In this document: positions 13,615 to 54,826 of the stretch, piece by piece
Layout: every line of letters begins with the position of its first letter
Position numbering within the stretch: the first letter of the stretch is position 1
Assembly (NCBI GenBank): GCA_944349595.1
Contig: CALVNF010000002.1
Span: 175,468-239,467 of the forward strand
Direction of reading: 5' to 3'
DNA from: an uncultured Bacilli bacterium
GTDB taxonomy: Bacteria; Bacillota_I; Bacilli_A; RFN20; CAG-826
DNA: 64,000 bases
Made by a program: the position numbers and the translations under genes
The notes under the pieces: model-generated
What the model saw: only the letters and a program-made list of their open reading frames with translations
What the model was told of the DNA's origin: nothing
Databases searched by the model: none

Positions 13615-13615
13615 T

Positions 13616-14452: not shown

Positions 14453-14465
14453 TATATTGATTATT

Positions 14466-14493
14466 TTTTATACTATATTATAATAATTGTGCG
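14466..14493 (+). promoter_or_regulatory. Sigma-A type promoter for thrS leader (TTGATT-N16-TATAAT)
   Basis: -35 TTGATT at 14466-14471 and -10 TATAAT at 14488-14493, upstream of the T-box leader. Confidence 0.45.
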
Positions 14494-14499
14494 TTGAAA

Positions 14500-14712
14500 A
14501 AGACATGATTATATATTGATTCAACACAGCGATTAAGAGTTTGGTGAAAGTCTTAAATGATAAATATATAATTACCACTTTGGAGCATCAAAAGTAATTT
14601 TGTCGTAACGCTTGCGTTAAAAGCATGATGAGAGCCAATAATTTTGTTGGAATTAAGGTGGTAACACGGAAAAAATTTCGCCCTTATGTAATATTACATA
14701 AGGGTTTTTATA
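14500..14712 (+). ncRNA. T-box riboswitch leader (threonine specifier ACC) with intrinsic terminator
   Basis: Conserved T-box sequence AATTAAGGTGGTAACACGG at 14651-14669. Terminator hairpin CCCTTATGTAAT/ATTACATAAGGG plus U-tract at 14681-14712. Candidate specifier ACC-A at 14574-14577. It lies immediately 5' of thrS. Confidence 0.7.
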
Positions 14713-14727
14713 TTTTGGAGGAAAATT

Positions 14728-16647
14728 ATGAAAGTATTTGTAAAAAATCAACCATTTGAATTTGAAAATCAAGTAAATGGTTTTCAAGTTGCAAAAAGCT
14801 TTGATCAAGAGCATCATAAAAACATAATTGCTTATAAGAAAAATAATCAATTATTTGATATGTCAACTTTATTGAATGATGGAGATGAAATTGAATTTAT
14901 TTATAAAGGCGATGATGATAAAGTTGCATTTGAAATATTAAATCACTCTACTTCTCATTTAATGGCTGAAGCAATTTTAAAATTATTCCCTGATGCAAAA
15001 TTAGGATTTGGTCCAGCAATTGATGAAGGATTTTATTATGATGTTGATTTTAATGACTATCAATTAAAAGAGGAAGATTTAGCTAAAATTGAATCTTTAA
15101 TGAAAAAATTAGCTAAAGAAAATAATAATTTCAAAAGACAAGTTGTTAGTAAGCAAGAAGCATTAGAAATATTTAAAAACGATCCATATAAAATTGAATT
15201 AATAAATGGAATCAATGATGAAATCACAATTTATACTCAAGGAAGTTTTACTGATTTATGTCATGGAATCCATTTACCAAACACATCTTATATTAGAAAC
15301 TTCAAACTTTTAAGTATCGCTGGTGCTTATTGGAGAGGCGATATCAAAAATAAACAATTAACAAGAATTTATGGTATTTCTTTTTATGAACAAGAAAATT
15401 TAAATAAATACTTATTAATGTTAGAAGAAAGAAAAAAGAGAGATCATCGTAAACTTGGAAAAGAATTAGGTTTATTTATGATTTCTGAATATGGACCAGG
15501 TTTTCCGTTCTGGCTTCCAAATGGCATGATTTTAAGAAGAGAATTGGAAAATTTCTGGTATGATTATCATCAAAAACACGGTTATGTTTTTTGTAAAACT
15601 CCAACAATGTTATCTAAAGAATTGTGGATAATTTCTGGCCACTGGGATAATTATAAAGATAATATGTACACTTCAACAATTGATGGAAAAGAATTTGCAA
15701 TTAAACCAATGAATTGTCCAGGTGGCATGTTAATTTATAAAAATTCTATCCACTCTTATAAAGATTTACCAATAAGACTTGGTGAATTAGGATTAGTTCA
15801 TAGACACGAAGCAAGCGGCGCTTTAAATGGTTTATTTAGAGTTCGTACATTTACTCAAGATGATGCTCATATTTTTATTAGAAAAGATCAATTGATTGAT
15901 GAAATTTCTAATTTATTAAAGATTTTTGATGATATTTATTCTGTTTTTGGTCTTGAATATCACATTGAATTATCAACAAGACCAGAAAAGAAATACATTG
16001 GAGATATTGAAATTTGGAATGAATCCGAAAAAATTCTTTCTGAAGCTTGTAAAAAATCAAATAAAAAATTCATTATTAATGAGGGTGATGGTGCTTTTTA
16101 TGGACCAAAACTTGACTTTAAATTAAAAGATTCAATGAATAGAATTTGGCAATGCGGTACAATTCAACTTGATATGAACTTACCAGAAAGATTTGATTTA
16201 ACTTATATTGATGAACATGGTGAAAAAGTAAGACCAATTATGCTCCATAGAGCCGTTTTAGGTTCAATTGAAAGATTTATTGGAATAATAACTGAAAACT
16301 TTGCTGGTGCATTCCCAACATGGTTAGCTCCAGTTCAAGTTAGTATCTTAACTGTTAATAACGAACACCACTTACAATATGCATTGAAGGTAAAAGAAGA
16401 ATTGGAAAAAGAAAATATTAGAGTTATACTAGATGATTCTAATGAAAAACTTGGATATAAATTAAGAAATTCACAAATTAAAAAAATACCTTACACTATT
16501 GTAATTGGCGACAATGAAAGAGATAATCAAAAAGTAACATATCGTGTTTATTCTCAAAAAGATGAAATTACAATTCCATTAAGCGAATTTGTAAATAAAG
16601 TTAAAGAAGATATTACATCAAAAAAATTACCAAAAGACAGAAAATAA
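14728..16647 (+). CDS. thrS: Threonyl-tRNA synthetase
   Basis: 639 aa. TGS, second-site editing domain and class II catalytic core, and anticodon-binding domain. A T-box leader lies upstream. Confidence 0.9.
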   Translation: MKVFVKNQPFEFENQVNGFQVAKSFDQEHHKNIIAYKKNNQLFDMSTLLNDGDEIEFIYKGDDDKVAFEILNHSTSHLMAEAILKLFPDAKLGFGPAIDEGFYYDVDFNDYQLKEEDLAKIESLMKKLAKENNNFKRQVVSKQEALEIFKNDPYKIELINGINDEITIYTQGSFTDLCHGIHLPNTSYIRNFKLLSIAGAYWRGDIKNKQLTRIYGISFYEQENLNKYLLMLEERKKRDHRKLGKELGLFMISEYGPGFPFWLPNGMILRRELENFWYDYHQKHGYVFCKTPTMLSKELWIISGHWDNYKDNMYTSTIDGKEFAIKPMNCPGGMLIYKNSIHSYKDLPIRLGELGLVHRHEASGALNGLFRVRTFTQDDAHIFIRKDQLIDEISNLLKIFDDIYSVFGLEYHIELSTRPEKKYIGDIEIWNESEKILSEACKKSNKKFIINEGDGAFYGPKLDFKLKDSMNRIWQCGTIQLDMNLPERFDLTYIDEHGEKVRPIMLHRAVLGSIERFIGIITENFAGAFPTWLAPVQVSILTVNNEHHLQYALKVKEELEKENIRVILDDSNEKLGYKLRNSQIKKIPYTIVIGDNERDNQKVTYRVYSQKDEITIPLSEFVNKVKEDITSKKLPKDRK

Positions 16648-16649
16648 TA

Positions 16650-16678
16650 TTGAATGTAAAAAATTTATCTATTATAAT
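16650..16678 (+). promoter_or_regulatory. Promoter for infC-rpmI-rplT (TTGAAT-N17-TATAAT)
   Basis: -35 TTGAAT at 16650-16655, a 17-nt spacer, and -10 TATAAT at 16673-16678, directly after the thrS stop. Confidence 0.5.
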
Positions 16679-16684
16679 ATTAAG

Positions 16685-16815
16685 CGTACATAAAGTAGAA
16701 AGTTTGAAGTACTCACTTCATCACCAGATTAATTAATATATTAATTGGTAGATAGCTACAAATTTATTCTTAATTTGTAATTTTTAGTGGGTATTAAAAA
16801 CACCCACTTTTTTAT
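16685..16815 (+). ncRNA. Candidate ribosomal protein L20 leader / attenuator upstream of infC
   Basis: Structured ~130-nt leader ending in the hairpin AGTGGGTATTAAAAACACCCAC plus TTTTTTA (16786-16814), just 5' of the infC SD. The Firmicutes infC operon is known to be attenuated by L20. Confidence 0.45.
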
Positions 16816-16828
16816 TAGGAGGAAAACG

Positions 16829-17386
16829 ATTATAGCCACGAATTTTAATAGCCAACAACGAAAACCAGATAAAAATAATGGTGATTTAGTCAATGAAGCA
16901 ATTAGATTTCCAGAAGTTCTTGTTATTGACTCAGATGGTACACAACTTGGTAAAATGACAAGAAGACAAGCTTTAGATAAAGCTTACGAGGAAGAATTAG
17001 ATTTATTATGTGTTGCACCAAAAGCAAACCCACCAGTTTGCAAAATAATTGATTATGGAAAATACAGATTCCAAAATCAAAAAAAAGCTAAAGAAGCAAA
17101 AAAGAAACAACATGTAATTGAAATTAAAGAAATTCAATTAACACCTCAAATCGGAATGCATGATTTAGAAATTAAAGCTAAAAAAGCAAAAGAATTTTTT
17201 GAGGAAGGTAATAAAGTTAGAGTTGTTGTAAGATTTCGTGGAAGACAACTTTCTCATACAGAAGTTGGCGAAGAAGTTCTTCAAAAATTTATTACTATCG
17301 TACAAGATTATTCACAAATTGAAAAACAACCAGTTTTAGAAGGTCGAAACCTAACTGTTGTTTTATCGGCTAAAAAATTAAAATAG
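16829..17386 (+). CDS. infC: Translation initiation factor IF-3, predicted AUU start codon
   Basis: SD AGGAGG at 16817-16822, a 6-nt spacer, then an in-frame ATT at 16829 (IIATNF...). IF-3 motifs follow (NEAIRFPEVLVIDSDG). No plausible in-frame ATG has an SD. The AUU start is the conserved autoregulatory feature of infC. Confidence 0.85.
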   Translation: MIATNFNSQQRKPDKNNGDLVNEAIRFPEVLVIDSDGTQLGKMTRRQALDKAYEEELDLLCVAPKANPPVCKIIDYGKYRFQNQKKAKEAKKKQHVIEIKEIQLTPQIGMHDLEIKAKKAKEFFEEGNKVRVVVRFRGRQLSHTEVGEEVLQKFITIVQDYSQIEKQPVLEGRNLTVVLSAKKLK

Positions 17387-31773: not shown

Positions 31774-34455
31774 TTACATTAAAGCACCAGAACCATTATA
31801 ATTTTTGTCATATATCATAATTAAAAATTCTGGGTGATCAATAAATGGATTTCTATTATGTTGATAATATTGATCAACATTATTATTTCTATTAACTTCA
31901 TAATCACTAACTGGATCTTGACCACTTGTTGCCCATTTATATAAAGCAGCAAAATCTCCATGAAGTCCATTTGCTCCAGAGGTGAAATTATTATATAAAG
32001 TATTGTCAATATTACCACCCACTTCTAAATCTTTTTCACCACTATCTCCTTCATATCTAACAGCCATATAGAATATAGTTCTTGCAATATCACCTTTAAA
32101 TTCATCTTTTGGTTCAAAATATGATGAGTCTCGATAATTTCCAATCATAGTCGATCTAAATTGTGGTTTGCTATGATCAAGATTATCATTTTCTTCACCG
32201 ACAAATCCAAAATCTAAATTGCCTCTGCAACTATTTAGCCAGTTATCACATGGATGTAAATTATTTAAATCAGAACCTTCTGGAATTCTTGTATCAAAAT
32301 CACCATGACTTTTAGCCCAGACATGCTCCTTATTCATACCAGTAGATTTAGGATAACTTCCTTCATACATTATGATATAATTTTTTGAATTAAATGGATC
32401 TTCATCAATTAAATTAAAATCAGAAGAATCTAATTCTCCATATCCAAAAGTTGTGTGGTCATCAATTATATTATGTAATGCTTGTTTTAATTCAGCGCCT
32501 TTTAAACCTCTAACTGGTTCATAATAAGTATCAATACTTCCTTGATTTCCTCTTGATGGATAGATTGAATTATTTCCATATAAATAATCATAATTATCAT
32601 TATGAGATGTTTGTTCTTTAAATATAATGCTTAAAACATTATTTTCTTGAGTTAATCTGAATTTATAATTATTAGATGAAATAAATTCTCCACTATTACC
32701 ATTTAAAGTAATTGAAGAGACAAAATACCCATTATTTGGGGAAGTTTTAACATTTATGTAGTCTCCAACAAATAAATTGTTATTTGGAGTTACACTTACT
32801 TCACCTTCTCCAGTTTTATTTATAGTTAAATTAGCTTTAACTGGTTCTTTATTTAATAAATATGTGATATTAATTCCATATAAAATCGCTCTATTTTCAC
32901 CATTTGTTTTTAATTCAAGATTTGTAACATTATCAGTATTAAAAATATAGACATTATTACTTAAAACTTTTTGAGTAATAGATTTTAAGGAAGTTGTGAA
33001 ATTTTTTAAAGTTAATGTAATTTCCGGATCATCATCATTATATTGTTTAACAATTAATTCTACAGAAACAATGCTTATTGTACTAGCAAATTCAAATTCA
33101 ATAGTCGCACCTTTACTAGTTCCTGTTCTAAAACTATCTTCATTACTATCTTTATATAAGTTTGAAGAAGTAACTGAATTTATTTCAATATCTTTAAGTT
33201 CTAAATTATTTTCTTGTAAAGAAAAATAACCATTAGTATTTAAATTGACAAAATTAATACTTCCAGTAACTTCGTTTAATATAGGTTCATCTTTTATAAA
33301 ACTTGCAGTTATTAAATATTGTTTTTCTTCATTAACTACAAAACTTAAAGTTGATAAAATTGAAGCACCATTAACTTCAAGAGATGATAATTTGTAACCA
33401 TCATTTGGAGTAACAATTACTTCTATTTCACTTCCTAATAAAACACTTGAATTATTTTCATAATCTTTAAATTTTACACTACCATTTTCTATATTATTAG
33501 ATATAGAGATAGTTGCGTATTTATCAGTATTTCCAATATATTTAAATGTTGCATTAACAACATATTCAATATATTCTTCCACTATAAAAGATTTACTACT
33601 TTTAATTGAAATACCATTAACAGTTAAAGTATCTAATTCATAATCTTTATTGGGAATAACTTCAATTTCAACCTTTGTATTAAGACTAACTTTTGAATTA
33701 TTTTCATAATTTTTAAACTTTATGACACCATTTTTTATACTTTCGTCAATTTTAATAGTTGCATATTGTTCTACAGGTGGAACATATTTAAAACTTGCTG
33801 AAACTAAATATGTTATTTCTTCTTGTGCAATAAAACTTAAACTTGATTTTATTGAAACTCCATTAACTGTTAGTGTGTCTAGTTCATAATTGGTATCAGG
33901 AGTTATTTTTAAATCAACATTTGTATTTAATTTAACTTTATCGCCGTTATTAAAATTGATAAATTCGATTTTTCCATTTTGTATATTTTCATCGATTTTA
34001 ATAGTAGCAAATTTTTCTTCTTCACTTATTTTTTTAAATGTTGCATCTACATAATAATCTTTTTCTTCATTGACAATAAAACTTAAACTTGATTTTATTG
34101 AAAGTCCATTAACAGTCAATGTATCAAGTTCATAATTTACATCTGGATTTACAACAACATTAATTTTTGTATTAAATAATACTTTTGAATTATTTGAATA
34201 ATCTTCAAATCTAATTGAACCATTTATGGTATTTTCATTAAATATAATAGTTCCATATTTTTCATCTTGACTAGTTGTTGTAGTTGTTGAATTTGAATTA
34301 CTAGAGGTATTTTGACTTGTCGTATTAGTTGAAGTTGTTATATTAGTTGTAGTTTGATTTGAAGAACTACTTGAATTTGAAGTAGTTAAATTAGTTGTGC
34401 TACATGATGTTAAGAAAAGTGTTAACATCATTAATAAATTAAATTTTCTAAACAT
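31774..34455 (-). CDS. Surface lipoprotein with Ser/Thr-rich linker, four tandem ~85-aa repeats and C-terminal Endonuclease-I (EndA/NucM-type) nuclease domain
   Basis: Signal peptide plus lipobox LFLTSC. Linker TTSNSSSSSNQTTTN... Four repeats of YATIKIDExIxNGxIxF...DYELDTLTVNG(L/V/I)SIKSSLSF. The C-terminus carries the motifs NKEHVWAKSHG, NLHPCDNWLNSCRGN and GDIARTIFYM, which are characteristic of the Endonuclease_1 family. Confidence 0.6.
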   Translation of the reverse strand: MFRKFNLLMMLTLFLTSCSTTNLTTSNSSSSSNQTTTNITTSTNTTSQNTSSNSNSTTTTTSQDEKYGTIIFNENTINGSIRFEDYSNNSKVLFNTKINVVVNPDVNYELDTLTVNGLSIKSSLSFIVNEEKDYYVDATFKKISEEEKFATIKIDENIQNGKIEFINFNNGDKVKLNTNVDLKITPDTNYELDTLTVNGVSIKSSLSFIAQEEITYLVSASFKYVPPVEQYATIKIDESIKNGVIKFKNYENNSKVSLNTKVEIEVIPNKDYELDTLTVNGISIKSSKSFIVEEYIEYVVNATFKYIGNTDKYATISISNNIENGSVKFKDYENNSSVLLGSEIEVIVTPNDGYKLSSLEVNGASILSTLSFVVNEEKQYLITASFIKDEPILNEVTGSINFVNLNTNGYFSLQENNLELKDIEINSVTSSNLYKDSNEDSFRTGTSKGATIEFEFASTISIVSVELIVKQYNDDDPEITLTLKNFTTSLKSITQKVLSNNVYIFNTDNVTNLELKTNGENRAILYGINITYLLNKEPVKANLTINKTGEGEVSVTPNNNLFVGDYINVKTSPNNGYFVSSITLNGNSGEFISSNNYKFRLTQENNVLSIIFKEQTSHNDNYDYLYGNNSIYPSRGNQGSIDTYYEPVRGLKGAELKQALHNIIDDHTTFGYGELDSSDFNLIDEDPFNSKNYIIMYEGSYPKSTGMNKEHVWAKSHGDFDTRIPEGSDLNNLHPCDNWLNSCRGNLDFGFVGEENDNLDHSKPQFRSTMIGNYRDSSYFEPKDEFKGDIARTIFYMAVRYEGDSGEKDLEVGGNIDNTLYNNFTSGANGLHGDFAALYKWATSGQDPVSDYEVNRNNNVDQYYQHNRNPFIDHPEFLIMIYDKNYNGSGALM

Positions 34456-46564: not shown

Positions 46565-46795
46565 TTATTTAATTTTTTCTTTAATTAAATTAATTAAATC
46601 TCCTGCCGTTTTGAGATTATTCATTTCTTCAGAAGAAAGATCTAAATTAATATTATATTTTTCTTCTAATCCTAATAAAAATTCTACAACATCTAATGAA
46701 TCAATTTGTAAATCAGTTAAAGATGCATTTAAATTTAAATCTTTAATTTCGAATTTTTCTTCCATTTCGTTAACTATTTGATCAATTTTTTCCAT
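46565..46795 (-). CDS. acpP: Acyl carrier protein
   Basis: Phosphopantetheine attachment motif LQIDSLDVVEF. The start is set at MEKIDQ (46795) because GGGAG sits 7 nt upstream. The longer ORF-track start is unlikely. Confidence 0.7.
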   Translation of the reverse strand: MEKIDQIVNEMEEKFEIKDLNLNASLTDLQIDSLDVVEFLLGLEEKYNINLDLSSEEMNNLKTAGDLINLIKEKIK

Positions 46796-46883
46796 AAATT
46801 TTCTCCCTAAAAACAAATTAAACGCATAAATTTAATCTTAAATATATTAACATTTTTTTAATAAGAAATGAAAAGTTTTATTT

Positions 46884-46910
46884 TTAGCACTCTTTATTGA
46901 CAAGTGCTAA
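46884..46910 (+). promoter_or_regulatory. CIRCE element (HrcA operator) overlapping htpG promoter
   Basis: TTAGCACTC-N9-AAGTGCTAA (consensus TTAGCACTC-N9-GAGTGCTAA, one mismatch). Promoter -35 TTGACA at 46897-46902, a 16-nt spacer, and -10 TATAAT at 46919-46924. Confidence 0.7.
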
Positions 46911-46955
46911 AAAGGGACTATAATAATTATGTGATTTATAGAGGAGGAAATTTTT

Positions 46956-48872
46956 ATGGAAAAAATGAAATTCCAAGCAGAATCAAAACAATTATTAAAT
47001 TTAATGATAAACTCAATTTATAGTAATAAAGATATATTTCTAAGAGAAATTATCTCTAATGCATCCGATGCAATAGATAAATATCACTATGATGTCTTAA
47101 TGAGTGATTCAAAACTTAAAGACAGAAATTATGAAATCTATATTTCAGTTGATAAAAAGAATAGAGTCTTAACAATTTCTGATAATGGAATTGGCATGAC
47201 TAAAAATGAATTAATTGAAAATTTAGGTACTATTGCTAAATCAGGTTCTAAAGAATTTTTAGAAAAATTAGCTCAATTAAAAGATTCAAATAATATTGAT
47301 ATTATTGGTCAATTTGGTGTTGGTTTTTATAGTGCTTTTATGGTTGCTAAAAAGATTCAAGTTATAACTAGATCATATAAAGATGAGAAAGGTTATATTT
47401 TTGAGTCAGATGGTGAAGATTCATACACTATTGATGAATTTGAAACAGAAAACTTTGGAACTAAAGTAAACATTTATTTAAAAGATGATTCAAAAGAAGA
47501 AAATTATTCAAAATATTTAGAACAATACGAACTCGAAGACTTGGTTAAGAAATATTCTGATTACATCAGATATCCAATTAAAATGGAAGTCACTGTATCT
47601 AAACAAGATTTAGATAAAGATGGAAAACCAATTGAAAATAAATATCACGATGAAAAAGAAATCAAAACATTAAATTCAATGATACCTCTTTGGAAGAAAA
47701 ACAAAAAAGAAGTCACTGAACAAGAATTAAATGAATTTTATAAGAATAAATTTTATGATTTTGAAGATCCACTTTTAGCACTTAACATAAATGTTGAAGG
47801 TATGATGTCTTATAAATCGTTGATTTTTATTCCATCACACGCTCCTTATGATTTATACAGCGAAAATTATGAAAAAGGATTAACTTTATATGTAAAAGGT
47901 GTATTTATTAAAGATAAAGTTAAAGAATTGGTTCCTGATTATTTAAAATTTATCAAAGGTTTAGTAGATTCAGATGATCTTTCTTTAAATATCTCAAGAG
48001 AAATTTTACAACAAACTGCTCAATTAAGAAGAATTAAAGATAGCATTGAATCAAAAGTTATTACTGAATTAAAAAAATTAAAAGATAATGATTTTGATAA
48101 ATATAATAAATTCTTCGATCTTTATGGAAGCCACTTAAAATATGGTATTTACACAAGTTATGGCTCTAAGAAAGATGAATTACAAGATTTGTTAATTTAT
48201 AAATCATTAAATAACCAAGAAAAATCAATATCTTTAAAAGAATATGTCGATAAAATGCAAAAAGATCAAAAATATATCTACTATGCAGCTGGTTCAACAA
48301 ATGAAGCAATAAATTTAATGCCACAAATCGATATATTTAAGAAAAAAGGTTATGATGTATTATTTTTAACTCAACCAGTAGATGAATTCTGTTTCATGAT
48401 GATGAAAGATTATAATGGTAAAGAATTTAAATCTATTACAAATGAAGAAATTGACATTTTAAATGATGAAGAAAAAAAGAAAATCGAAGATTTAAACAAT
48501 CAAAACAAAGAATTGTTAGATAAAATTAAAAATTCTTTAAAAGATAAAGTTGATGATGTCATTATTTCTTCAAAATTAACTACTGCTCCTGTTTGTCTTT
48601 CAAATAAAGAAGGTTTAACTCTTGAAATGGAAAACACTTTAAATAATATGCCAGGAAATGATGAAAAACATAAAGCAATTAAAGTATTAGAAATTAATCC
48701 AAATCATGAATTATTTAAAAATTTATCAACATTATCAAGCGATGAAGACATTAATTTCTATTCTAATTTGTTATATGATCAAGCAATGTTAATTCAAGGT
48801 TTCCAAATTAAAGATCCAGAAAATTTTTCAAAATTATTAACTGAATTAATGTTAAAATCATTAAATAAATAA
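46956..48872 (+). CDS. htpG: Molecular chaperone HtpG (Hsp90)
   Basis: N-terminal GHKL ATPase (LRELISNASDAIDK, GQFGVGFYSAFMVA). 638 aa. Confidence 0.9.
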   Translation: MEKMKFQAESKQLLNLMINSIYSNKDIFLREIISNASDAIDKYHYDVLMSDSKLKDRNYEIYISVDKKNRVLTISDNGIGMTKNELIENLGTIAKSGSKEFLEKLAQLKDSNNIDIIGQFGVGFYSAFMVAKKIQVITRSYKDEKGYIFESDGEDSYTIDEFETENFGTKVNIYLKDDSKEENYSKYLEQYELEDLVKKYSDYIRYPIKMEVTVSKQDLDKDGKPIENKYHDEKEIKTLNSMIPLWKKNKKEVTEQELNEFYKNKFYDFEDPLLALNINVEGMMSYKSLIFIPSHAPYDLYSENYEKGLTLYVKGVFIKDKVKELVPDYLKFIKGLVDSDDLSLNISREILQQTAQLRRIKDSIESKVITELKKLKDNDFDKYNKFFDLYGSHLKYGIYTSYGSKKDELQDLLIYKSLNNQEKSISLKEYVDKMQKDQKYIYYAAGSTNEAINLMPQIDIFKKKGYDVLFLTQPVDEFCFMMMKDYNGKEFKSITNEEIDILNDEEKKKIEDLNNQNKELLDKIKNSLKDKVDDVIISSKLTTAPVCLSNKEGLTLEMENTLNNMPGNDEKHKAIKVLEINPNHELFKNLSTLSSDEDINFYSNLLYDQAMLIQGFQIKDPENFSKLLTELMLKSLNK

Positions 48873-48931
48873 GCATATTATTGAAGAATAAAAAATAATT
48901 ATGTAATAATAAATATATCGGGAGGTTTCTT

Positions 48932-49285
48932 ATGAAATTTTATAAAACAAAAGATAACAAAATTGTATTAAGTTTTGTCGAACAAAATTTAGATTGCTTG
49001 AAAGAAGTTACAGCAAACACGACAGATGGCGCTTTAGAAAAACATGTTCCATTTGTTAAAAAAGAAGGAAATAAGATTCTTGTTGATGTTGGGGAAGTAT
49101 TACACCCAATGTTAGATAATCATTATATTGAATTTATTTTATTAAAAACAAATAAAGAAATTCATATAAAAGAATTAAATCCTGGCGATGAACCAAAAGC
49201 TGTTTTTGAACTTTCAGAAAATGAAGTTGCTATTGAAGTCTATGAATATTGTAATTTACATGGACTTTGGAAAACAGTTTTATAA
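48932..49285 (+). CDS. Superoxide reductase (1Fe-SOR / neelaredoxin-type desulfoferrodoxin)
   Basis: Active-site ligand motifs EKHVP, HPMLDNHYIEF and CNLHGLW. Confidence 0.75.
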   Translation: MKFYKTKDNKIVLSFVEQNLDCLKEVTANTTDGALEKHVPFVKKEGNKILVDVGEVLHPMLDNHYIEFILLKTNKEIHIKELNPGDEPKAVFELSENEVAIEVYEYCNLHGLWKTVL

Positions 49286-49327
49286 TAACTAAAAAATTAA
49301 ATTAAAAAACTTTACTATTTCGGAGGA

Positions 49328-49753
49328 TTGATTATGCTAATCGATGAAATTAAAAGAGAAAATGTAAATGCTATAAAACAAAGAGATCATGTAAAAAAGG
49401 GTATTATGAGTATTATCATAAACAAATACATGATTTTATCCTCTGATAAAAATCATGTAGAAAATAAACCTACTGATAATGAAGTTATATCAATAATTCA
49501 AAAAACAATTAAAGAATTAGAAGAAGAAAAACAAGGTTATTTATCTGTTAACAATACTCAAAAAGTTGATGACATTCAATATCAAATTAATATTATTTCA
49601 ACTTTTTTACCAAAAATGTTAACAGATGGTGAAATTTTAAAAATTATTGATTCTTTAGAAGATAAATCACTACCTTCTGTAATGAAATATTTCAAAATTC
49701 ATTACACTGGAAGAGTTGATATGAAAAAAGTTTCTGAATTAATCAAAAAATAA
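49328..49753 (+). CDS. GatB/YqeY-domain protein
   Basis: 141 aa, with a YqeY-like helical-domain pattern. Confidence 0.55.
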   Translation: MIMLIDEIKRENVNAIKQRDHVKKGIMSIIINKYMILSSDKNHVENKPTDNEVISIIQKTIKELEEEKQGYLSVNNTQKVDDIQYQINIISTFLPKMLTDGEILKIIDSLEDKSLPSVMKYFKIHYTGRVDMKKVSELIKK

Positions 49754-49807: not shown

Positions 49808-49881
49808 GGGGAATTAGTTTAATGGTAGAGCAGCGGTCTCCAAAACCGTTGATATGGGTTCGATTCCTATATTCCCCGCCA
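49808..49881 (+). tRNA. tRNA-Trp (anticodon CCA)
   Basis: GGGGAATTAGTTTAATGGTAGAGC, anticodon loop CTCCAAA, GGGTTCGATTCC, and ATTCCCCGCCA. The anticodon is CCA rather than UCA. Confidence 0.85.
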
Positions 49882-49896
49882 TTGATTTTGACTTAA

Positions 49897-49925
49897 TAAG
49901 TGCGTTAATTACGCACTTTTTTTAT
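49897..49925. terminator. Bidirectional intrinsic terminator (tRNA-Trp + strand / pilin gene - strand)
   Basis: AAGTGCGTTAATTACGCACTTTTTTT. Confidence 0.7.
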
Positions 49926-50143
49926 TAAAATACTAATTCGCCAAAACCTTGTGCTTGAGTAGTGTTTTCATTGAAACTACTAATCTCTTCACTTAATTTA
50001 TTTTCAATTTCATTTGTTGTGTTATTAAACATTGAAATCATAACACCTGCTACTGAACCAAAAATAGCTAATACTAATAAAACTCCTAAAATTTGACCTT
50101 TAATTTCTGACATTTTTTTCTCCTTTTTATCTAAATTCTCCAT
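49925..50143 (-). CDS. Flp/class-III-signal-peptide pilin-like protein (72 aa)
   Basis: MENLDKKEKKMSEIKG|QILGVLLVLAIFGSVAGVMISMF: a charged leader ending in KG, then a ~22-residue hydrophobic segment and a short polar tail. It is the last gene of the TadA-containing cluster. Confidence 0.45.
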   Translation of the reverse strand: MENLDKKEKKMSEIKGQILGVLLVLAIFGSVAGVMISMFNNTTNEIENKLSEEISSFNENTTQAQGFGELVF

Positions 50144-50486
50144 TATAAAGACCTACAATTACTGATCTTTTTATTGACAATGAGTTCAAATTATTTAAGA
50201 AAAATAATGGTTTAATTTCGCTGACCAATTCAAACTCAAGTCTTTCACCTACGATTGATGTATCATTAATTATATTTATATGAATTAATGAACTTTGTTT
50301 TTCAATGTATTGATTTACTTCATCTAGTGCTCTTGTCCCTCCTCTCATTGAAAATATATTACAAATCGTTGACGAAATTGCATCTAAATTAACATAGTCG
50401 GCTTGTATAACAATTAAATCTATAAAAAATAATGCGCAAATAAAGAAAATAAATAATGAAAGTAAACTACCTAATTTAGAACCCAC
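50127..50486 (-). CDS. TadE-like / pseudopilin-like membrane-anchored protein
   Basis: 119 aa. N-terminal hydrophobic helix (LLSLFIFFICALFFIDLIV) then a small extracellular domain. Overlaps its neighbours, consistent with an operon. Confidence 0.35.
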   Translation of the reverse strand: MGSKLGSLLSLFIFFICALFFIDLIVIQADYVNLDAISSTICNIFSMRGGTRALDEVNQYIEKQSSLIHINIINDTSIVGERLEFELVSEIKPLFFLNNLNSLSIKRSVIVGLYNGEFR

Positions 50487-51147
50487 TTATAACACTCCCC
50501 ATTAAATTAATAACACCGACTATAATTGCTAATATAAAAATAGCTCCGCCAACCAAAGAATAATTTGCCTTTGATAAAAGATTTTGTTTTTTTCTTTCTT
50601 CTTGTTCTTTTTGATTATTTTCTAAAATTTTGTCAAATAAATAGATAAAAGAATTAATATGTTTTGTATCCGATAATGAATCATTCATTTCATAAATCGA
50701 TAACATTAATTGATCAATAATTTCTCTATTAAAATTTTTTGCAAAATTTAAATACGGAACAACCGATTTATCATTATCAATTTGTGATAACATTATTTTT
50801 ATTTTTTCAGATAATTCATTTGATGAATATTTTAATATCTCGTTAAAAGCTTGATATATATTAAATCCTGCTTCTAAATAAATTCTAAAATATATCAGAG
50901 AATTGATAAAATCATTAAATAATCGATTCTCTTTTGCTTTTTTTGAGGATTCATATAAGAAATACATTATAACTGGGGTAATTAATAATAAAACTGAACT
51001 AACAATTATATATATTATATTTTTATATAGAAAAGATAATCCTACTCCAGCTGTTAAAAGAATTAATTCAATAATTAATATTTTTAATATTTCTTTTTTG
51101 TAATTTTTACCAATTGCTTCAAAATAATCTTTAATTTTTTCCATCAT
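50476..51147 (-). CDS. TadC/TadB-like (T2SS-F-type) inner-membrane platform protein
   Basis: 223 aa. N-terminal TM pair, a ~120-aa cytoplasmic helical domain, and a C-terminal TM segment (GspF-like topology). Confidence 0.4.
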   Translation of the reverse strand: MMEKIKDYFEAIGKNYKKEILKILIIELILLTAGVGLSFLYKNIIYIIVSSVLLLITPVIMYFLYESSKKAKENRLFNDFINSLIYFRIYLEAGFNIYQAFNEILKYSSNELSEKIKIMLSQIDNDKSVVPYLNFAKNFNREIIDQLMLSIYEMNDSLSDTKHINSFIYLFDKILENNQKEQEERKKQNLLSKANYSLVGGAIFILAIIVGVINLMGSVISGF

Positions 51148-51842
51148 AATTTGTACTCCATGATATAATCTGTTTTATAAAGTCTTTTCATATATAAATA
51201 TAAACTGACAATATAGAATAAAAACCCACAAAAACTAATTATTTTAAAATACAAGCTTTCAATAATCTCACTTGTAAAATTTCCTAATGATAATTTAGCA
51301 ACGAGTAAAATTAAAAACGCAAATAACCACATTGATATAAACGAAAATAAATAACTCACAGATTCTTTTTCAGTTTTTATATTTAAATATGAGAGTCTTT
51401 TTGTTTCATTTAATAAATTTTTTGAAATATTTAAGAAATTTCCACCAACATCTTCAAATATTTTTAAACATTGTTTAAAAATATTAAATATATTAAAAGT
51501 GTAATGTTTATCTAAAAAATATAGCAGATCTTCACTATTTTTATTGTTTTCATCAAAATTTTCTAATGTCTTTTTATTTAATTTTTTCTTTGCATTATTC
51601 AGTGCCGCTGTTGTTGAATCAACAAAATTAAAGCTAATTATTGTATTTTCAATAAAATTACAGCATTCAGAAAATCTACTTATTTTATATGTGTATTTTT
51701 TGTCAATAAAGTAAATAAATATTAAATAGGATAAACTAATTCCACAAAATAAAATAACAAAAATAAGATCTGGAATTATATAACATATTATTAATGTCGA
51801 TATTAAAATTGACATTATGTTTAGTATAAAATTTTTGCTCAT
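51144..51842 (-). CDS. TadB/TadC-like (T2SS-F-type) inner-membrane platform protein
   Basis: 232 aa. N-terminal TM helices, a cytoplasmic domain, and C-terminal TM helices. Sits immediately 3' of the ATPase. Confidence 0.4.
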   Translation of the reverse strand: MSKNFILNIMSILISTLIICYIIPDLIFVILFCGISLSYLIFIYFIDKKYTYKISRFSECCNFIENTIISFNFVDSTTAALNNAKKKLNKKTLENFDENNKNSEDLLYFLDKHYTFNIFNIFKQCLKIFEDVGGNFLNISKNLLNETKRLSYLNIKTEKESVSYLFSFISMWLFAFLILLVAKLSLGNFTSEIIESLYFKIISFCGFLFYIVSLYLYMKRLYKTDYIMEYKL

Positions 51843-51850
51843 ATTAACTC

Positions 51851-52861
51851 CTAATTAACCTGTAATTGAAATCCTTTAAACGCAGAATATGCTTCTGGGA
51901 GTTTAAAAAATTTTCTTACACCTTTTTCTTCTTTGTATATTTTTTTATAATCTTTCCCATCTGATATTAAAATTTCATTTATATATCTTTTAACTCGACC
52001 ATTTGTGAATTCTTTTTTTACACCAATTAAAACATTTATATTTTCGTAAATATCTTGTTCAAAAATATTCATGTTAATATCATTTTTTTGAAGTAAAAAT
52101 TTGATTCTTGATACTAAACTTAAACCAGTTTTTGCATGCATGGTTGTTATTGTAGAGATACCCGTTAAAAGAGAATTATAAACATCTAAAAATTCATCAC
52201 CTCTTGCTTCTGCTAAAATTAAATAATCTGGATTAAGTCTTAAGCTTGTTTTAATTAAGTTATTAACATTACAAAATCGTGATTTTTCTGGAATCATTAT
52301 TGATATATCAGAATTCTTATAATCAAGATCCAGTTCATTAATAGTATCAATAATTACAAGCCTCTCATTATTTTCAAACATTTTTAATAAATATTTTTGA
52401 AATTCAGTTTTTCCGCTTGATGGTTCTCCATAAATAATAATTGAAAGTTTATTTTTTAAGATAAATTTAAAAAATTCATACAATTTTTCGTCAAAGAAGT
52501 CATTATTATTGGTGATTCTAATTTCTTTTGAAAATTTACGGATTGAGAAAATCAGTCTTTTATTTCCATATTTTTTAGAAATCGATTCATGAACAACGTT
52601 TAATCTAATATTTAAAAAAGAAACATCAACAATTGGATTTGAAATTGAAAAATTAATATCTAAAAAATTTGTTATATCTTTAATTAAATTTCTTATTTCA
52701 TCGTACTCGACTTTTTTATCATATAATTGTCTGCCTTTAAAGTTATCTAAATAATAAATTTTTTCACCATTATAAGATATATCAGTTATTGAATCAATAT
52801 TTAAAAGCTCTGCAAAACAGCTATTATTTAATCTATCAATTACTTTTTCAATCATTTCCAT
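51851..52861 (-). CDS. TadA/CpaF/VirB11-family secretion ATPase
   Basis: Walker A GEPSSGKTE, VIIDTINEL, Asp/Arg box LRLNPDYLILAEARGDEF, and His box TITTMHAKTG. These are co-linear with CpaF motifs (GGTGSGKTT / VTIEDAAEL / RMRPDRIILGEVRGPEA / TLHANTP). 336 aa. Confidence 0.7.
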   Translation of the reverse strand: MEMIEKVIDRLNNSCFAELLNIDSITDISYNGEKIYYLDNFKGRQLYDKKVEYDEIRNLIKDITNFLDINFSISNPIVDVSFLNIRLNVVHESISKKYGNKRLIFSIRKFSKEIRITNNNDFFDEKLYEFFKFILKNKLSIIIYGEPSSGKTEFQKYLLKMFENNERLVIIDTINELDLDYKNSDISIMIPEKSRFCNVNNLIKTSLRLNPDYLILAEARGDEFLDVYNSLLTGISTITTMHAKTGLSLVSRIKFLLQKNDINMNIFEQDIYENINVLIGVKKEFTNGRVKRYINEILISDGKDYKKIYKEEKGVRKFFKLPEAYSAFKGFQLQVN

Positions 52862-53222
52862 CTTCTATAAAATAAGTTATTCCTTTCTTGAATTTTCCAT
52901 AAACAAAATCTGATGTAACAACAATTGTTACTCCTTTTGGTTTATCATCAAATGTCATTACTTTATTTTCGTTGTAGTATTCTAAATATATCTTAATTGT
53001 TTTAACAAGACTATTAACATTGCTTTGAAAATGATTTTTTAAATTTTCTTTTAATAAATCTTTATCAATATAAACATCTTTCATCGAATAATGACAAGAA
53101 TTAGTAATAAAATTACTTGTTATTTCGTTAAATGCGTTATTTAACGAAGTAAAAGATACAGAAGTAATAGAAAAATTAATTCCAAGAATTAATGATAAAC
53201 CACCAAGTAAAACGCCCCACAT
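52848..53222 (-). CDS. Small membrane-anchored protein (possible minor pilin/TadG-like)
   Basis: 124 aa with a single N-terminal hydrophobic helix. Overlaps the ATPase gene. Confidence 0.3.
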   Translation of the reverse strand: MWGVLLGGLSLILGINFSITSVSFTSLNNAFNEITSNFITNSCHYSMKDVYIDKDLLKENLKNHFQSNVNSLVKTIKIYLEYYNENKVMTFDDKPKGVTIVVTSDFVYGKFKKGITYFIEDGND

Positions 53223-53224
53223 AA

Positions 53225-54433
53225 TTAAACAATAAACACCTCATTGTACTTATTATCACCAGTATTAAATTGTCCATTTAAATAATATTCATTTTTGTGA
53301 TTAAAATATAATTCTTTTCTAAATCCTATTTTTTCATTTGAACAAGATATATAGAATTTATCTAAAGAAATGCTAGGTCTACAATACATCCATCTATATC
53401 CTTTGTAAGAATTTAAATTATTTGCAAAATATATTGCATCTGAAATTTTATACCCGGTTTTTAAATATCTATTTACATCTTTTTCTAATACATTAACCAT
53501 ATAAGATGGATTGTCACTATAATGCATTTTTACTTTACCATCAGTGACTATATCTTCTAAAACCATGTATCCGTCTTTATAAATATAGCTATAATCGTAA
53601 TGTCCACCTATATCACTGCTACCGCATTGAGCATCATAACCAGTAAAACGACAACTAATTGTATCTTCGTTAAATTTAATATTTAGACACATTTTTAAAG
53701 ATGTTTTAACATCTCTATAATGCGAACTTCTCACACATTTTGAATTGAGTTTTGAATCTAATATTGGATTTTCTGGATCATTATCCGTATATCGATACTT
53801 ATAACAACTATAATCAACTTTACCATAATATAAATCGTGTATGTCATTATATCGTAATGTTGAAAAATCATACACTTGAATTAAATTTGTAAATCTTCCA
53901 TTTAAAATTACTGGAACTCCCCGCTCATATTCAAATATTTTTTGTGTTAATAAATCATCTTGATTAATATGTAATGTTGTTGAATCTTTAAATTCAGAAT
54001 TATATAAGCTTATAAATCCATCATTAACACCATCATTAAATCTAAAATCAATGAAATCTTCACTTTTATCAAAATAAAATTCGCAAGTTGCTTGATATTT
54101 TCGACTTATAGAAGACATTCGTGAAGGTAAATCAACTTTAAAAATTCCGCCTTTTGTTTCGACTTCAAAAGATACTTTAATAGCATTTCTAACTAAAGGT
54201 GTATAACTAAATTTTATTTTATAATAATAATGAGGTTGATAACTTGATGGTTGTCCATACTGATGATAAACAATTTCGGTTCTATCAAATTCCATAACAA
54301 AATCTTCTATTTTGTATTCGTCTTGATAAATATAAGTTCCATCTTCTATTTTATTATTATTTATACCAGCGCTTGTTAAAAATAAAAATGATAAAACTGA
54401 AAATAAAACTAAACTACCCTTTGATACTTTCAT
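53225..54433 (-). CDS. Secreted Tyr/Asp/Cys-rich protein of unknown function
   Basis: 402 aa. N-terminal signal peptide (MKVSKGSLVLFSVLSFLFLTSAG). No known motif. Lies in the same operon as the Tad-like genes. Confidence 0.35.
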   Translation of the reverse strand: MKVSKGSLVLFSVLSFLFLTSAGINNNKIEDGTYIYQDEYKIEDFVMEFDRTEIVYHQYGQPSSYQPHYYYKIKFSYTPLVRNAIKVSFEVETKGGIFKVDLPSRMSSISRKYQATCEFYFDKSEDFIDFRFNDGVNDGFISLYNSEFKDSTTLHINQDDLLTQKIFEYERGVPVILNGRFTNLIQVYDFSTLRYNDIHDLYYGKVDYSCYKYRYTDNDPENPILDSKLNSKCVRSSHYRDVKTSLKMCLNIKFNEDTISCRFTGYDAQCGSSDIGGHYDYSYIYKDGYMVLEDIVTDGKVKMHYSDNPSYMVNVLEKDVNRYLKTGYKISDAIYFANNLNSYKGYRWMYCRPSISLDKFYISCSNEKIGFRKELYFNHKNEYYLNGQFNTGDNKYNEVFIV

Positions 54434-54719
54434 GTTTACTCCCTATTGAATAAAAATAATAAAATTTATTTAATGTAATATTTTTAAAATTTCCATATTG
54501 TTTATTCGTGTAATATTTTTTCCACCAAGTATTATCTAAAGTAAAATAAATACTATTAAATAATTTTTTCTCTTCCGTATTTAATTTATTTAATGCCAAT
54601 TCAAATTTAATAATTTTCCTATGATCTTGTTGAGTATCAATTCTTTTTATTATTTTATATTGACATATAAGATATTCGTTTTTTAAATTTTCAATTTCTT
54701 TTAATTTTTGTTTTTCCAT
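54414..54719 (-). CDS. Small hypothetical cytoplasmic protein
   Basis: 101 aa, basic and coiled-coil-like. It is the first gene of the cluster and overlaps the next gene by 20 nt. Confidence 0.3.
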   Translation of the reverse strand: MEKQKLKEIENLKNEYLICQYKIIKRIDTQQDHRKIIKFELALNKLNTEEKKLFNSIYFTLDNTWWKKYYTNKQYGNFKNITLNKFYYFYSIGSKHESIKG

Positions 54720-54810
54720 TTTTTTATCTCCCTACTTAATAAGTCGTAGTAAAAAATAATTTTTTCCAAAAATTTTAAAATTTTTTTGAAAATTTTTTTA
54801 TTAATTAATG

Positions 54811-54819
54811 TGATATAAT
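54811..54819 (+). promoter_or_regulatory. Extended -10 promoter (TGnTATAAT) placing the TSS at or next to the gmk-like ATG (leaderless mRNA candidate)
   Basis: TGATATAAT at 54811-54819, with only 7 nt between the -10 element and the ATG at 54827. No SD is present. Confidence 0.4.
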
Positions 54820-54826
54820 ATTTTAC

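Follow-up and report, generated by a model that had tools for sequence, protein, structure and literature searches.

We analysed a stretch of 64,000 nucleotides from an uncultured Bacilli bacterium (contig CALVNF010000002.1, positions 175,468 to 239,467; hereafter the window), and in it a group of eight genes at positions 49925-54719 that an earlier note, made from the letters of the DNA, had read as a Tad/Flp-type pilus-like assembly cluster. The genes, here named g1 to g8 in the order of transcription, all lie on the minus strand. The first gene of the operon, g1 (54414-54719, 101 amino acids, aa), encodes a small cytoplasmic protein with a C-terminal domain of the MG284/MPN403 family, and might be a regulator. 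It is followed by g2 (53225-54433, 402 aa), whose product has an N-terminal signal peptide and is a candidate adhesin or filament-associated surface protein, and by g3 (52848-53222, 124 aa), a bitopic protein with an N-terminal transmembrane (TM) helix and an external domain of about 100 aa, possibly a minor pilin or pseudopilin, or an assembly factor. The putative motor, g4 (51851-52861, 336 aa), belongs to the secretion superfamily of hexameric-type ATPases, on the VirB11/TadA/archaeal branch, and the polytopic proteins g5 (51144-51842, 232 aa) and g6 (50476-51147, 223 aa) are the predicted TadB-like and TadC-like half-platforms, respectively. The operon ends with g7 (50127-50486, 119 aa), a bitopic, pseudopilin-like homologue of gene 40 of plasmid pLS20, and g8 (49925-50113, 62 aa), a pilin-like protein and the candidate major filament subunit. 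The genes overlap by 20 nucleotides (nt) at g1/g2, 14 nt at g3/g4, 4 nt at g5/g6, and 11 nt at g6/g7, and the start of g1 is preceded by the ribosome-binding site GGGAG.

The eight open reading frames (ORFs) are co-oriented and placed as the earlier note had them, with the exception of the last gene, which most likely encodes 62 and not 72 aa. The ORF finder had set its start at 50143, and the sequence there reads the stop codon of g7, AAAGGAG, 7 nt, and an ATG at 50113. Because the ribosome-binding site AAAGGAG stands 7 nt upstream, the ATG comes after the g7 stop, and the proteins of all eight relatives begin with M(S/G)E(I/L)KGQ at this point, the start of g8 was moved to 50113. A G+C-rich hairpin at 49898-49918, in the gap that separates the g8 stop from a gene for tRNA-Trp, has an 8-bp stem with four GC pairs and a T-run behind it, and is the likely operon terminator. 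At the opposite end, the AT-rich divergent intergenic stretch from g1 to gmk (54720-54826) is the presumed promoter region; promoter-like matches in it were no commoner than in shuffled sequence, and so no specific promoter was called. The G+C content of the operon region is about 22-24%, uniform with the rest of the window.

The same series of genes was found in eight further distinct chromosomal loci (L003, L004, L006, L007, L009, L010, L011, and L023), one of them reached via a remote member of the 232-aa family, and the ATPases encoded there share from about 51% down to about 39% identity with the window copy. The locus L012, from a near-identical strain of the window organism, was counted apart from these eight. 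In the order of the genes, the proteins measure approximately 100 aa (this one sometimes missing), 320-400 aa, 107-134 aa, the ATPase, 232-261 aa, 160-223 aa, 107-121 aa, and 52-72 aa. A gene order that recurs at eight other distinct sites is not due to chance. On contigs that are long enough, the operon has on one side the divergent gmk, which comes after nrdDG and two CNNM/CorC genes, and on the other side acpP. The earlier note had proposed a comparison of the locus across related genomes, and this showed that the gene order and the gmk/acpP site were kept in all the relatives examined. The neighbours in the window are housekeeping genes, encoding DnaE, PolA, DnaB/DnaI, ThrRS, IF3, EzrA, enolase, TyrRS, and HtpG, and no VirB4, VirD4, or relaxase domain was detected in the 64 kb of the window or near the operon at the eight further loci. 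The argument that no VirB4 or VirD4 coupling ATPase accompanies the cluster was, therefore, upheld, in a chromosomal context of housekeeping functions. In a family that comprises at least 250 clusters (at 50% identity), the gmk-acpP site is fixed, and no genes of a type IV secretion system (T4SS) lie nearby; the operon is therefore best regarded as chromosomal and vertically inherited, and not as a degraded mobile element.

Some features of the surroundings vary among the relatives. Genes for integrase, Rep_trans, or serine recombinase are found just past acpP in L003 (11494-14291), L004 (9012-11421), and L011 (11639-17020), and this suggests a hotspot for insertions on the acpP/tRNA side, next to an operon that itself stays put. 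We considered whether the operon itself was a prophage or mobile island, and this was rejected, given the uniform composition and the position of the integrase and Rep genes, which are not conserved and, in the relatives that have them, lie past acpP. The segment acpP-htpG-desulfoferrodoxin-yqeY (46565-49753 in the window) is inverted in the window and in L012 when compared with L007 (11244-14340), and in most other relatives acpP is found directly after the operon. The tRNA-Trp gene, with anticodon CCA, is placed at 49808-49881 (+), directly downstream of the operon, and the hairpin terminator region is common to both. This tRNA-Trp(CCA) and the long table-11 ORFs are consistent with the standard genetic code and not with the Mycoplasma code.

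When all eight proteins were scanned with Pfam, NCBIfam, and PHROGs, a significant family was obtained just for the ATPase and, with NCBIfam, for g1. The ATPase scored 51.2 bits with Pfam T2SSE (PF00437; cutoff 24.9), the sole curated Pfam model passed among the core proteins. The earlier note had proposed a search of seven of the proteins with curated models (T2SSE, T2SSF, TadE, Flp_Fap, and CpaF), and only the ATPase passed one of them, T2SSE. The motifs quoted in that note for this protein, GEPSSGKT, PDYLILAEARGDE, and TTMHA, are all present, with their core residues conserved at 90% or more among 120 homologues. In the set of 121 sequences, conservation of at least 90% covered the N-domain motif TDISYNG, Walker A (G...SGKTE), the Asp box, Walker B (PD....AE.R..E), and the His box (ITT.H), and this indicates that the protein is an active enzyme on which purifying selection acts. 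With NCBIfam, the highest scores were for VirB11 (TIGR02788, 124 bits) and the "TadA family conjugal transfer-associated ATPase" (88 bits), a model that is actinobacterial, followed by TrbB (77.5 bits), FlaI (59 bits), ComGA (NF041000, 38.6 bits), and TfpB (15 bits). All the NCBIfam equivalog cutoffs were missed (VirB11, 250; TrbB, 304.6; FlaI, 550; ComGA, 300), and so the protein is not a VirB11 or TrbB equivalog. Sequence matches in the PDB were afGspE (2oap, 54.6 bits), HP0525 VirB11 (54.1 bits), FlaI (48.6 bits), CpaF (44 bits), and BfpD (22 bits). Both the NCBIfam ranking and the best PDB matches agree with the earlier assignment of the ATPase to the TadA/CpaF/VirB11/archaeal branch and not to that of ComGA/PilB/GspE. 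From its sequence, it would be placed on the VirB11/TadA/archaeal side as an orthologue of no characterised subfamily.

More than 220 clusters of ATPase homologues, of about 335-355 aa, were found in metagenomes under generic names, such as "ATPase, T2SS/T4P/T4SS family [Bacilli bacterium]". A tblastn search with the ATPase against 72,556 plasmids returned first those of the Bacillus pLS20 family, with about 31% identity, 112-132 bits, and E down to 1e-31, and ranked Campylobacter VirB11, rhizobial CpaF, and enterobacterial VirB11 behind them. With a profile of the window-ATPase family, the scores were 232 bits for the plasmid pDSYZ, 224 for pLS20, 217 for a plasmid of Bacillus mycoides, 171 for pXO2, and 145 for Bacillus cereus TadA, followed by Campylobacter VirB11 (130), CpaF (113 and 91), Agrobacterium VirB11 (87), and TrbB (78 and 63).

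The two proteins encoded next to the ATPase, g5 and g6, had been read in the earlier note as T2SS-F-like platform proteins. Profile-profile comparison and the gene order favoured this reading, in a TadB/TadC-like form, and no curated Pfam or NCBIfam threshold was reached. With hhalign, the g5 family aligned to TadB over 175 columns (Prob 93.6%, E 2.1e-7) and to TadC with E 6.6e-4; the g6 family aligned to TadC over 140 columns (Prob 38%, E 3.3e-4) and to TadB with E 0.016. The positive control, TadB against TadC, gave E 4.6e-10. At the level of sequence profiles, homology of g5 to TadB was thus demonstrated. The order ATPase, g5, g6 is that of tadA-tadB-tadC, and each platform protein prefers its positional Tad counterpart, the g6-TadC match being weak on its own. 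Comparison of g5 with g6 gave E 3.5e-5, as for distant paralogues. A HMMER scan of 1.84 billion representatives with the g5 profile retrieved a self-contained family of 252 clusters at 50% identity, nearly all of 226-262 aa, and a single-sequence, word-indexed search with g6 gave 6 matches. Pfam T2SSF matched 3 of the 133 g5-family members at E ≤0.01 (best E 4e-4). A genuine TadB of B. cereus gave E 0.011 with this model, and the TadC of the same organism gave nothing; because this TadB itself barely scores, failure to match Pfam T2SSF is uninformative for Gram-positive sequences.

The representative search also returned a protein of 387 aa (P0319) that is a natural g5-g6 fusion, i.e., one two-domain platform. 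TadB and TadC are thought to have been split from a two-domain platform (PMC6668835), and both the fusion and the paralogy of g5 and g6 fit this history. The copies of g6 in L011 and L023 are short (162-165 aa), without the N-terminal TM hairpin. In AlphaFold2 models, g5 was predicted with a mean predicted local distance difference test (pLDDT) of 95.3 and a predicted TM-score (pTM) of 0.87, and g6 with a pLDDT of 77; the two share a layout in which a TM hairpin at the N-terminus leads into a helical domain of about 100 residues in the cytoplasm, with further TM helices, two of them in g5, at the C-terminus. The structural comparison that had been suggested for the 223- and 232-aa proteins gave a divided result. 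The confident model of g5 found no GspF match in fold searches of the PDB. In a Foldseek search of the PDB, the g6 model had as its top matches the cytoplasmic domains of the GspF family, OutF (5nbg; prob 0.87, target-relative TM-score 0.65), PilC (2whn), and EpsF, plus the GspF-like SpoIIIAB; these are weak matches, with TM-scores of 0.53-0.66 relative to the target and every E >1. The motif GGD(I/F)L of g5 could have been taken for a GxGD aspartyl-peptidase site, but this reading was rejected: the motif is part of the helical domain in the cytoplasm, reads GGNFL in the window copy, and aligns with a T2SSF-type region.

The protein g8 begins with the leader MSEIKG, of six residues, and Q; a hydrophobic helix of about 22 residues and a short variable tail make up the rest. 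Its N-terminus, M(S/G)E(I/L)KG-Q(I/L)LG(I/V)(I/V)L, is invariant in eight lineages, and the C-terminal half is variable. Such a pattern would be expected if the N-terminus holds a site for recognition or processing and the helix behind it packs in the core of a filament. Flp-type pilins are about 60 aa long, and divergent Gram-positive "Flp-like" pilins have been described (PMC3244431). In 7 homologues, g8 gave no match to Flp_Fap (PF04964), and the only match to this model was with g3 (E 0.21). The archaeal model Pilin_N gave one match, with E 0.036, among the 21 homologues of g3, g7, and g8 scanned. The bona fide tad locus of B. cereus also has a small pilin without E at +5 or Y at +6 (G|MLIAL). 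Of the proposal that g8 is an Flp-like pilin, the size and the architecture were retained; no curated threshold was passed, and the E+5/Y+6 motif of Flp is missing.

The name TadE-like, which the earlier note had given to g7, was not supported at any curated threshold of Pfam (PF07811 for TadE) or NCBIfam. In the window and the relatives, g7 starts with MGSKLG, MSNQLA, MGSKLA, or MGNLLS, and a hydrophobic helix follows. Pfam TadF (PF16964) was matched in 1 of 7 homologues (E 0.019, 15.3 bits; cutoff 27.3), and hhalign found no significant match to single TadE sequences from Rhizobium and Ralstonia. The N-terminal TM helix of g3 is plain, with no conserved Gly before it. As the earlier note had stated, no prepilin peptidase gene sits in the cluster, and none was seen in the window, which is 64 kb of a contig of 879 kb, or in the related chromosomal loci; the motif GxGD[hydrophobic][K/R] occurred in no ORF of at least 100 aa across 282 kb of related DNA.

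The two proteins encoded at the start of the operon are of other kinds. The window copy of g1 matched NCBIfam NF045770 (MG284/MPN403) with E 8.5e-7 and 28.8 bits, below the cutoff of 37.3, and three of four orthologues were above it (52.1, 50.1, and 46.3 bits). The orthologues are placed at 6221-6547 in L003, 6208-6495 in L007, 1932-2249 in L010, and 6234-6500 in L011, and the gene is missing from L006 and L023. The motif WW(K/R)K(Y/S)(Y/F) is conserved in members of the g1 family. The MG284/MPN403 family is otherwise from Mycoplasma genitalium and M. pneumoniae. For g2, no family match was found in Pfam, NCBIfam, or PHROGs. Its orthologues, of 323-402 aa, align poorly, and all have an N-terminal signal sequence, one of them with a lipobox-like ITC, so that g2 looks like a fast-evolving surface protein. 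It sits where the Tie adhesin region sits upstream of pLS20 gene 36. A 'KG|S' in the signal peptide of g2 was considered as a pilin-like leader and rejected, as it is not conserved and the orthologues have ordinary Sec or lipoprotein signals.

The closest annotated kin of the operon is the block of genes 36-41 of the conjugative plasmids of the pLS20 family and of pXO2, and not the classical tad loci. In pLS20, gene 37 has been published as a 'putative VirB11', and genes 36 and 38-41 carry the label 'Unknown' and have TM predictions that resemble those of g3 and g5-g8 (PMC8557374). The sizes of the pLS20 products are 126 aa (gene 36), 268 aa (38), 243 aa (39), 120 aa (40), and 47 aa (41), and the pXO2 block is alike. 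The plasmid blocks lie in L015 (pLS20, NC_015148.1 9446-13334), L016 (Bacillus velezensis pDSYZ), and L019 (Bacillus anthracis pXO2 13436-17322). The genes g3-ATPase-g5-g6-g7 are collinear with pLS20 genes 36-40, and g8 corresponds to gene 41 by position and size only. With hhalign, g5 aligned to the gene-38 family (Prob 95.2%, E 2.4e-8), g6 to the gene-39 family (Prob 92.2%, E 5.8e-7), and g7 to the gene-40 family of pLS20/pDSYZ/pXO2 over about 95 columns (Prob 86.7-89.4%, E 2e-6 to 4.4e-6). The match of g3 to the gene-36 family of the same plasmids was the best of the five plasmid families tested, and it was weaker (E 5.5e-4, Prob 30%, 66 columns). No significant match was found between g8 and gene 41, and none of the off-diagonal pairs between window and plasmid families fell below E 0.01. 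The gene-39 family in turn matched TadC (Prob 78.7%, E 1.7e-5), and gene 38 matched TadB weakly (E 0.006). On these sequences, the operon is read as the chromosomal sister of the plasmid 36-41 block, inherited vertically within a clade of uncultured Bacilli that have small, low-GC genomes.

The plasmid block and the operon are alike in gene order and sizes, and both have upstream a gene for a large surface protein, an adhesin in the plasmids and a candidate adhesin in the window. They differ in their setting: the plasmid genes are mobile and sit among VirD4, VirB4, VirB6, VirB8, and VirB1, whereas the window operon stands alone in the chromosome. In addition, the plasmid ATPases have an extra N-terminal region of 65-105 residues when compared with the window ATPase, the small plasmid peptide (MLDQNADRMYWVIG...) is without the KG|Q leader of g8, and no plasmid counterparts of g1 and g2 were detected. 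A further arrangement is found in a plasmid of B. mycoides (L028, NZ_CP020748.1, 1210-3934), with VirD4, a 277-aa protein, a 232-aa 'flagellar assembly protein FlaJ', and the ATPase. The g6 family matched this 'FlaJ' protein (hhalign Prob 95.2%, E 2.7e-8), and the label 'FlaJ' was not reproduced by Pfam or NCBIfam, which gave no match. Gene 40 of pLS20 (L015 9552-9914) has a weak match to Pfam DUF4320 (E 0.006) and another to the NCBIfam 'MAG1140 family' (E 0.017), neither of them matched by g7, and gene 36 (L015 6389-6769) matches DUF5411 with E 1.4e-5, just under the cutoff, a family to which g3 has no match. Our search of the literature, which did not take in the work of Grynberg et al. of 2007 (cited in PMC3244431 and said to deal with tad-like genes in B. 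anthracis plasmids), found no earlier account of the operon, nor a Tad reading of pLS20/pXO2 genes 38-41.

Collectively, these data led us to conclude that the operon probably encodes a minimal machine of the type IV filament superfamily, one that has diverged strongly and whose design comes nearest to that of the Tad (type IVc) pilus. The family of the ATPase, the homology of g5 to TadB, the homology of g5, g6, and g7 to the plasmid block, and the conserved synteny are the established points that carry this conclusion, and the roles that we assign to g1, g2, g3, and g7 are putative. In the mechanism that we propose, the VirB11/TadA-like, hexameric-type ATPase g4 would dock on a split inner-membrane platform formed by g5 (TadB-like) and g6 (TadC-like). 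Movement of the platform, driven by ATP, would draw the 62-aa g8 out of the membrane and so extend a thin helical filament at its base, possibly after cleavage of g8 behind its invariant MSEIKG leader. The filament may be primed or capped by the bitopic g7, and possibly by g3. The variable, secreted g2 would be the likely surface or adhesive partner, and g1 a possible regulator.

Several observations weigh against this interpretation. Filament formation and cleavage of the leader are predictions from the genes. The canonical prepilin motif used by PilFind is [GAS]-x4-[DE] (PMC3244431), and it is not matched by g8 because position +5 is V or I; there is no E or D at +5 and no Y at +6, and the mature N-terminus would be QILGV. 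All the non-ATPase proteins were below threshold with the Flp, TadE/F, and archaeal pilin models, and below every curated T2SSF threshold, g6 giving E 0.079 with Pfam T2SSF and g5 nothing. No Peptidase_A24 gene was found in the operon, the 64-kb window, or the related loci. Likewise, TadZ/CpaE and CpaB/RcpC were absent from the operon, the window, and the related loci, as was TadV. The reference profiles for TadB and TadC were built from three sequences each (Rhizobium binae p2, a Ralstonia megaplasmid, and B. cereus pH308197_258). Homology of g6 to TadC is suggestive only, with a Prob of 38% in the direct comparison and a stronger link by transitivity, via plasmid gene 39.

As for the biological role of the predicted filament, we would speculate that it serves adhesion to the host or to particles, or else DNA uptake. 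Adhesion is the default role of Tad pili and would fit because g2 is a variable surface protein, and uptake of DNA would fit because the kin of the operon is found in DNA-transfer operons. The second possibility can be put as an explanation in its own right, namely that the operon encodes a pseudopilus for competence or nucleotide scavenging that takes the role of ComG and pulls extracellular DNA to a ComEC-type channel. Tad-type machines are needed for natural transformation of Micrococcus luteus (PMC4322843) and for DNA uptake by the genome-reduced Liberibacter (PMC8513845). The sister block lies in DNA-transfer operons, and the window encodes, at 31774-34455 (-), an 893-aa protein with Endonuclease_1 (PF04231) and a faint Flg_new_2 match that is apparently a large secreted nuclease. 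The short leader of g8, which ends in KG, also resembles the ComGC-type leader. However, none of the loci examined has a competence gene (comEA, comEC, dprA, or another) linked to the operon, and the nuclease gene is 17 kb off and not a conserved neighbour. We therefore regard a dedicated DNA-uptake machine as unlikely, with a probability that is still appreciable.

A bolder form of the filament interpretation would dispense with the components that are absent. The operon would then encode a self-sufficient filament machine of six proteins, namely the ATPase, both platform halves, two bitopic primers, and a subunit of 56-62 aa, that needs no dedicated TadV-type peptidase, TadZ, or CpaB and whose 'MSEIKG|Q' pilin is unprocessed or processed in an unconventional manner. 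It would be the free-living, chromosomal form of a module that was co-opted by plasmids of the pLS20/pXO2 type, giving them a Tad-like mating filament, and would serve the acquisition of DNA or nucleotides, or attachment, in hosts with small genomes. Gram-positive conjugation systems are generally said to lack a pilus. We hold this version to be rather doubtful.

The plasmid relatives can also be read the other way, with the operon as a domesticated or orphaned piece of a Gram-positive conjugative T4SS, in which the ATPase, as a VirB11, would power a channel for DNA or protein, with the small membrane proteins as accessories of that channel and not pilins. The nearest annotated kin of the ATPase, g5, g6, and g7, and weakly of g3, is indeed found in the conjugation operons of pLS20, pDSYZ, and pXO2, by VirD4 and VirB4; gene 37 has been called 'putative VirB11' (PMC8557374), and the top curated model for the ATPase is VirB11 TIGR02788. 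The earlier note had foreseen that the ATPase might cluster with VirB11 of a degraded conjugative element, and the kinship to the plasmids touches on this point, but the window locus is not such an element, given its fixed place between gmk and acpP across a broad clade. The TIGR02788 score of 124 bits is to be set against a cutoff of 250. No VirB4, VirD4, VirB6/8, relaxase, integrase, or repeat boundary was found in the window or by the operon in most relatives, and the neighbours nrdDG, CNNM, gmk, acpP, and htpG, with the same site across at least 250 clusters, indicate vertical descent. Moreover, the plasmid proteins match the TadC and TadB profiles; if the plasmid block is Tad-like too, as it may be, this explanation becomes part of that of a Tad-like filament. 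It is better to read the kinship in reverse, with plasmids that appear to carry a Tad-like module, and we consider an orphaned conjugation apparatus to be quite unlikely.

Even less probable, in our view, is a pilus of the archaeal type (Epd/FlaI-like) that was taken independently from Archaea and is not derived from the bacterial Tad system. The top PDB match of the ATPase is the archaeal GspE 2oap, with FlaI above CpaF, the single Pilin_N match (E 0.036) came from the homologues of g3, g7, and g8, and a plasmid relative of g6 is annotated 'FlaJ'. The KG|Q junction of g8 also resembles the archaeal class III signal peptides. However, the scores for afGspE, VirB11, FlaI, and CpaF are close (44-55 bits), and the family profile puts a Firmicute TadA (145 bits) and the ATPases of Bacillus plasmids (171-232 bits) well above the others. 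The split platform, in which g5 prefers TadB and g6 prefers TadC, is the bacterial Tad pattern, and Pfam and NCBIfam did not reproduce the name 'FlaJ'. The slightest probability was given to the absence of any filament machine, in which case the operon would encode a dedicated apparatus that exports or inserts small membrane peptides or the variable secreted g2. In favour of this, no membership in a pilin family was shown, no peptidase was found, and g2 is always encoded upstream. Yet g2 carries a Sec-type signal peptide of its own and would not need a special exporter to cross the membrane, and it is hard to see what else the leader of g7, or the invariant leader of g8 with the hydrophobic helix behind it, would be for. 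Moreover, all characterised machines that combine this ATPase family with a GspF-type platform polymerise pilin-like subunits (PMC6668835; PMC10191384).

The likely presence of a Tad-like filament system is of interest for its host. The classical Mollicutes are the sole Gram-positive-derived class reported to be without type IV pilus genes, and they served as the pilus-free negative control (PMC3244431). A Tad-like operon kept in very small, low-GC genomes of Bacilli would mean that a filament or uptake machine was retained under strong genome reduction, which suggests that it is important for host-associated life. Five of the eight proteins are in families that have no curated model, so that annotation pipelines miss the system. 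The homology to pLS20 genes 36-41 and pXO2 gives rise to the testable idea that these 'unknown' genes may form a Tad-like pseudopilus, which bears on mating-pair formation in Gram-positive bacteria. The operon is among the smallest candidate gene sets for a type IV filament known to us, and may be of use as a minimal type IV filament model. One more Tad-like locus in a Firmicute is unsurprising in itself; the features of note here are the type of host, the extreme reduction of the gene set, the unrecognised families, the non-canonical leader, and the homology to plasmids. Elsewhere in the window, a T-box leader (Rfam RF00230, 98 bits) was found at 14485-14688 (+), upstream of the gene for threonyl-tRNA synthetase (14728-16647).

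Finally, the operon was compared with the known filament systems. With the archaeal type IV pili (Epd, Aap, and the archaellum FlaI/FlaJ) it has in common the ATPase matches to afGspE (54.6 bits) and FlaI (48.6 bits) and a leader in which a basic residue is followed by Gly, and some archaeal systems likewise have paired platform genes (PMC6668835). In contrast, the host belongs to the Bacilli, the FlaI model (cutoff 550) gave 59 bits, both halves of the platform match bacterial TadB and TadC specifically, and there are no archaeal accessory genes. With ComG the operon shares the monoderm Bacilli host and a short leader ending in K-G, and in the model organism for ComG the prepilin peptidase is also encoded apart from the operon (PMC3244431). 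It departs from ComG in the ATPase, which scored 38.6 bits with the ComGA model (cutoff 300) and is in another major branch of the superfamily; in the platform, as ComGB is a single two-domain protein, whereas the window has two proteins of about 230 aa; and in the pilins, those of ComG having a globular domain and E at +5. When compared with the Tad/Flp systems (Aggregatibacter tad, Caulobacter cpa, and B. cereus pH308197_258), the window locus is without TadZ/CpaE, CpaB/RcpC, TadV, and a secretin, and TadZ/CpaE and CpaB/RcpC are present in the canonical loci compared. Its ATPase has 336 aa versus 450-480, its leader six residues versus 13-26, and its platforms about 230 aa versus about 300; the pilin is without the E+5/Y+6 Flp motif, and the non-ATPase proteins are under the Pfam and NCBIfam thresholds. 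The shared features are these: there is no PilM/N/O and no retraction ATPase, and a single bifunctional-type ATPase, from the TadA/VirB11 branch, precedes two single-domain platforms in the order TadB, TadC, with genes for a small pseudopilin-like protein and a pilin-like protein of about 60 aa downstream.

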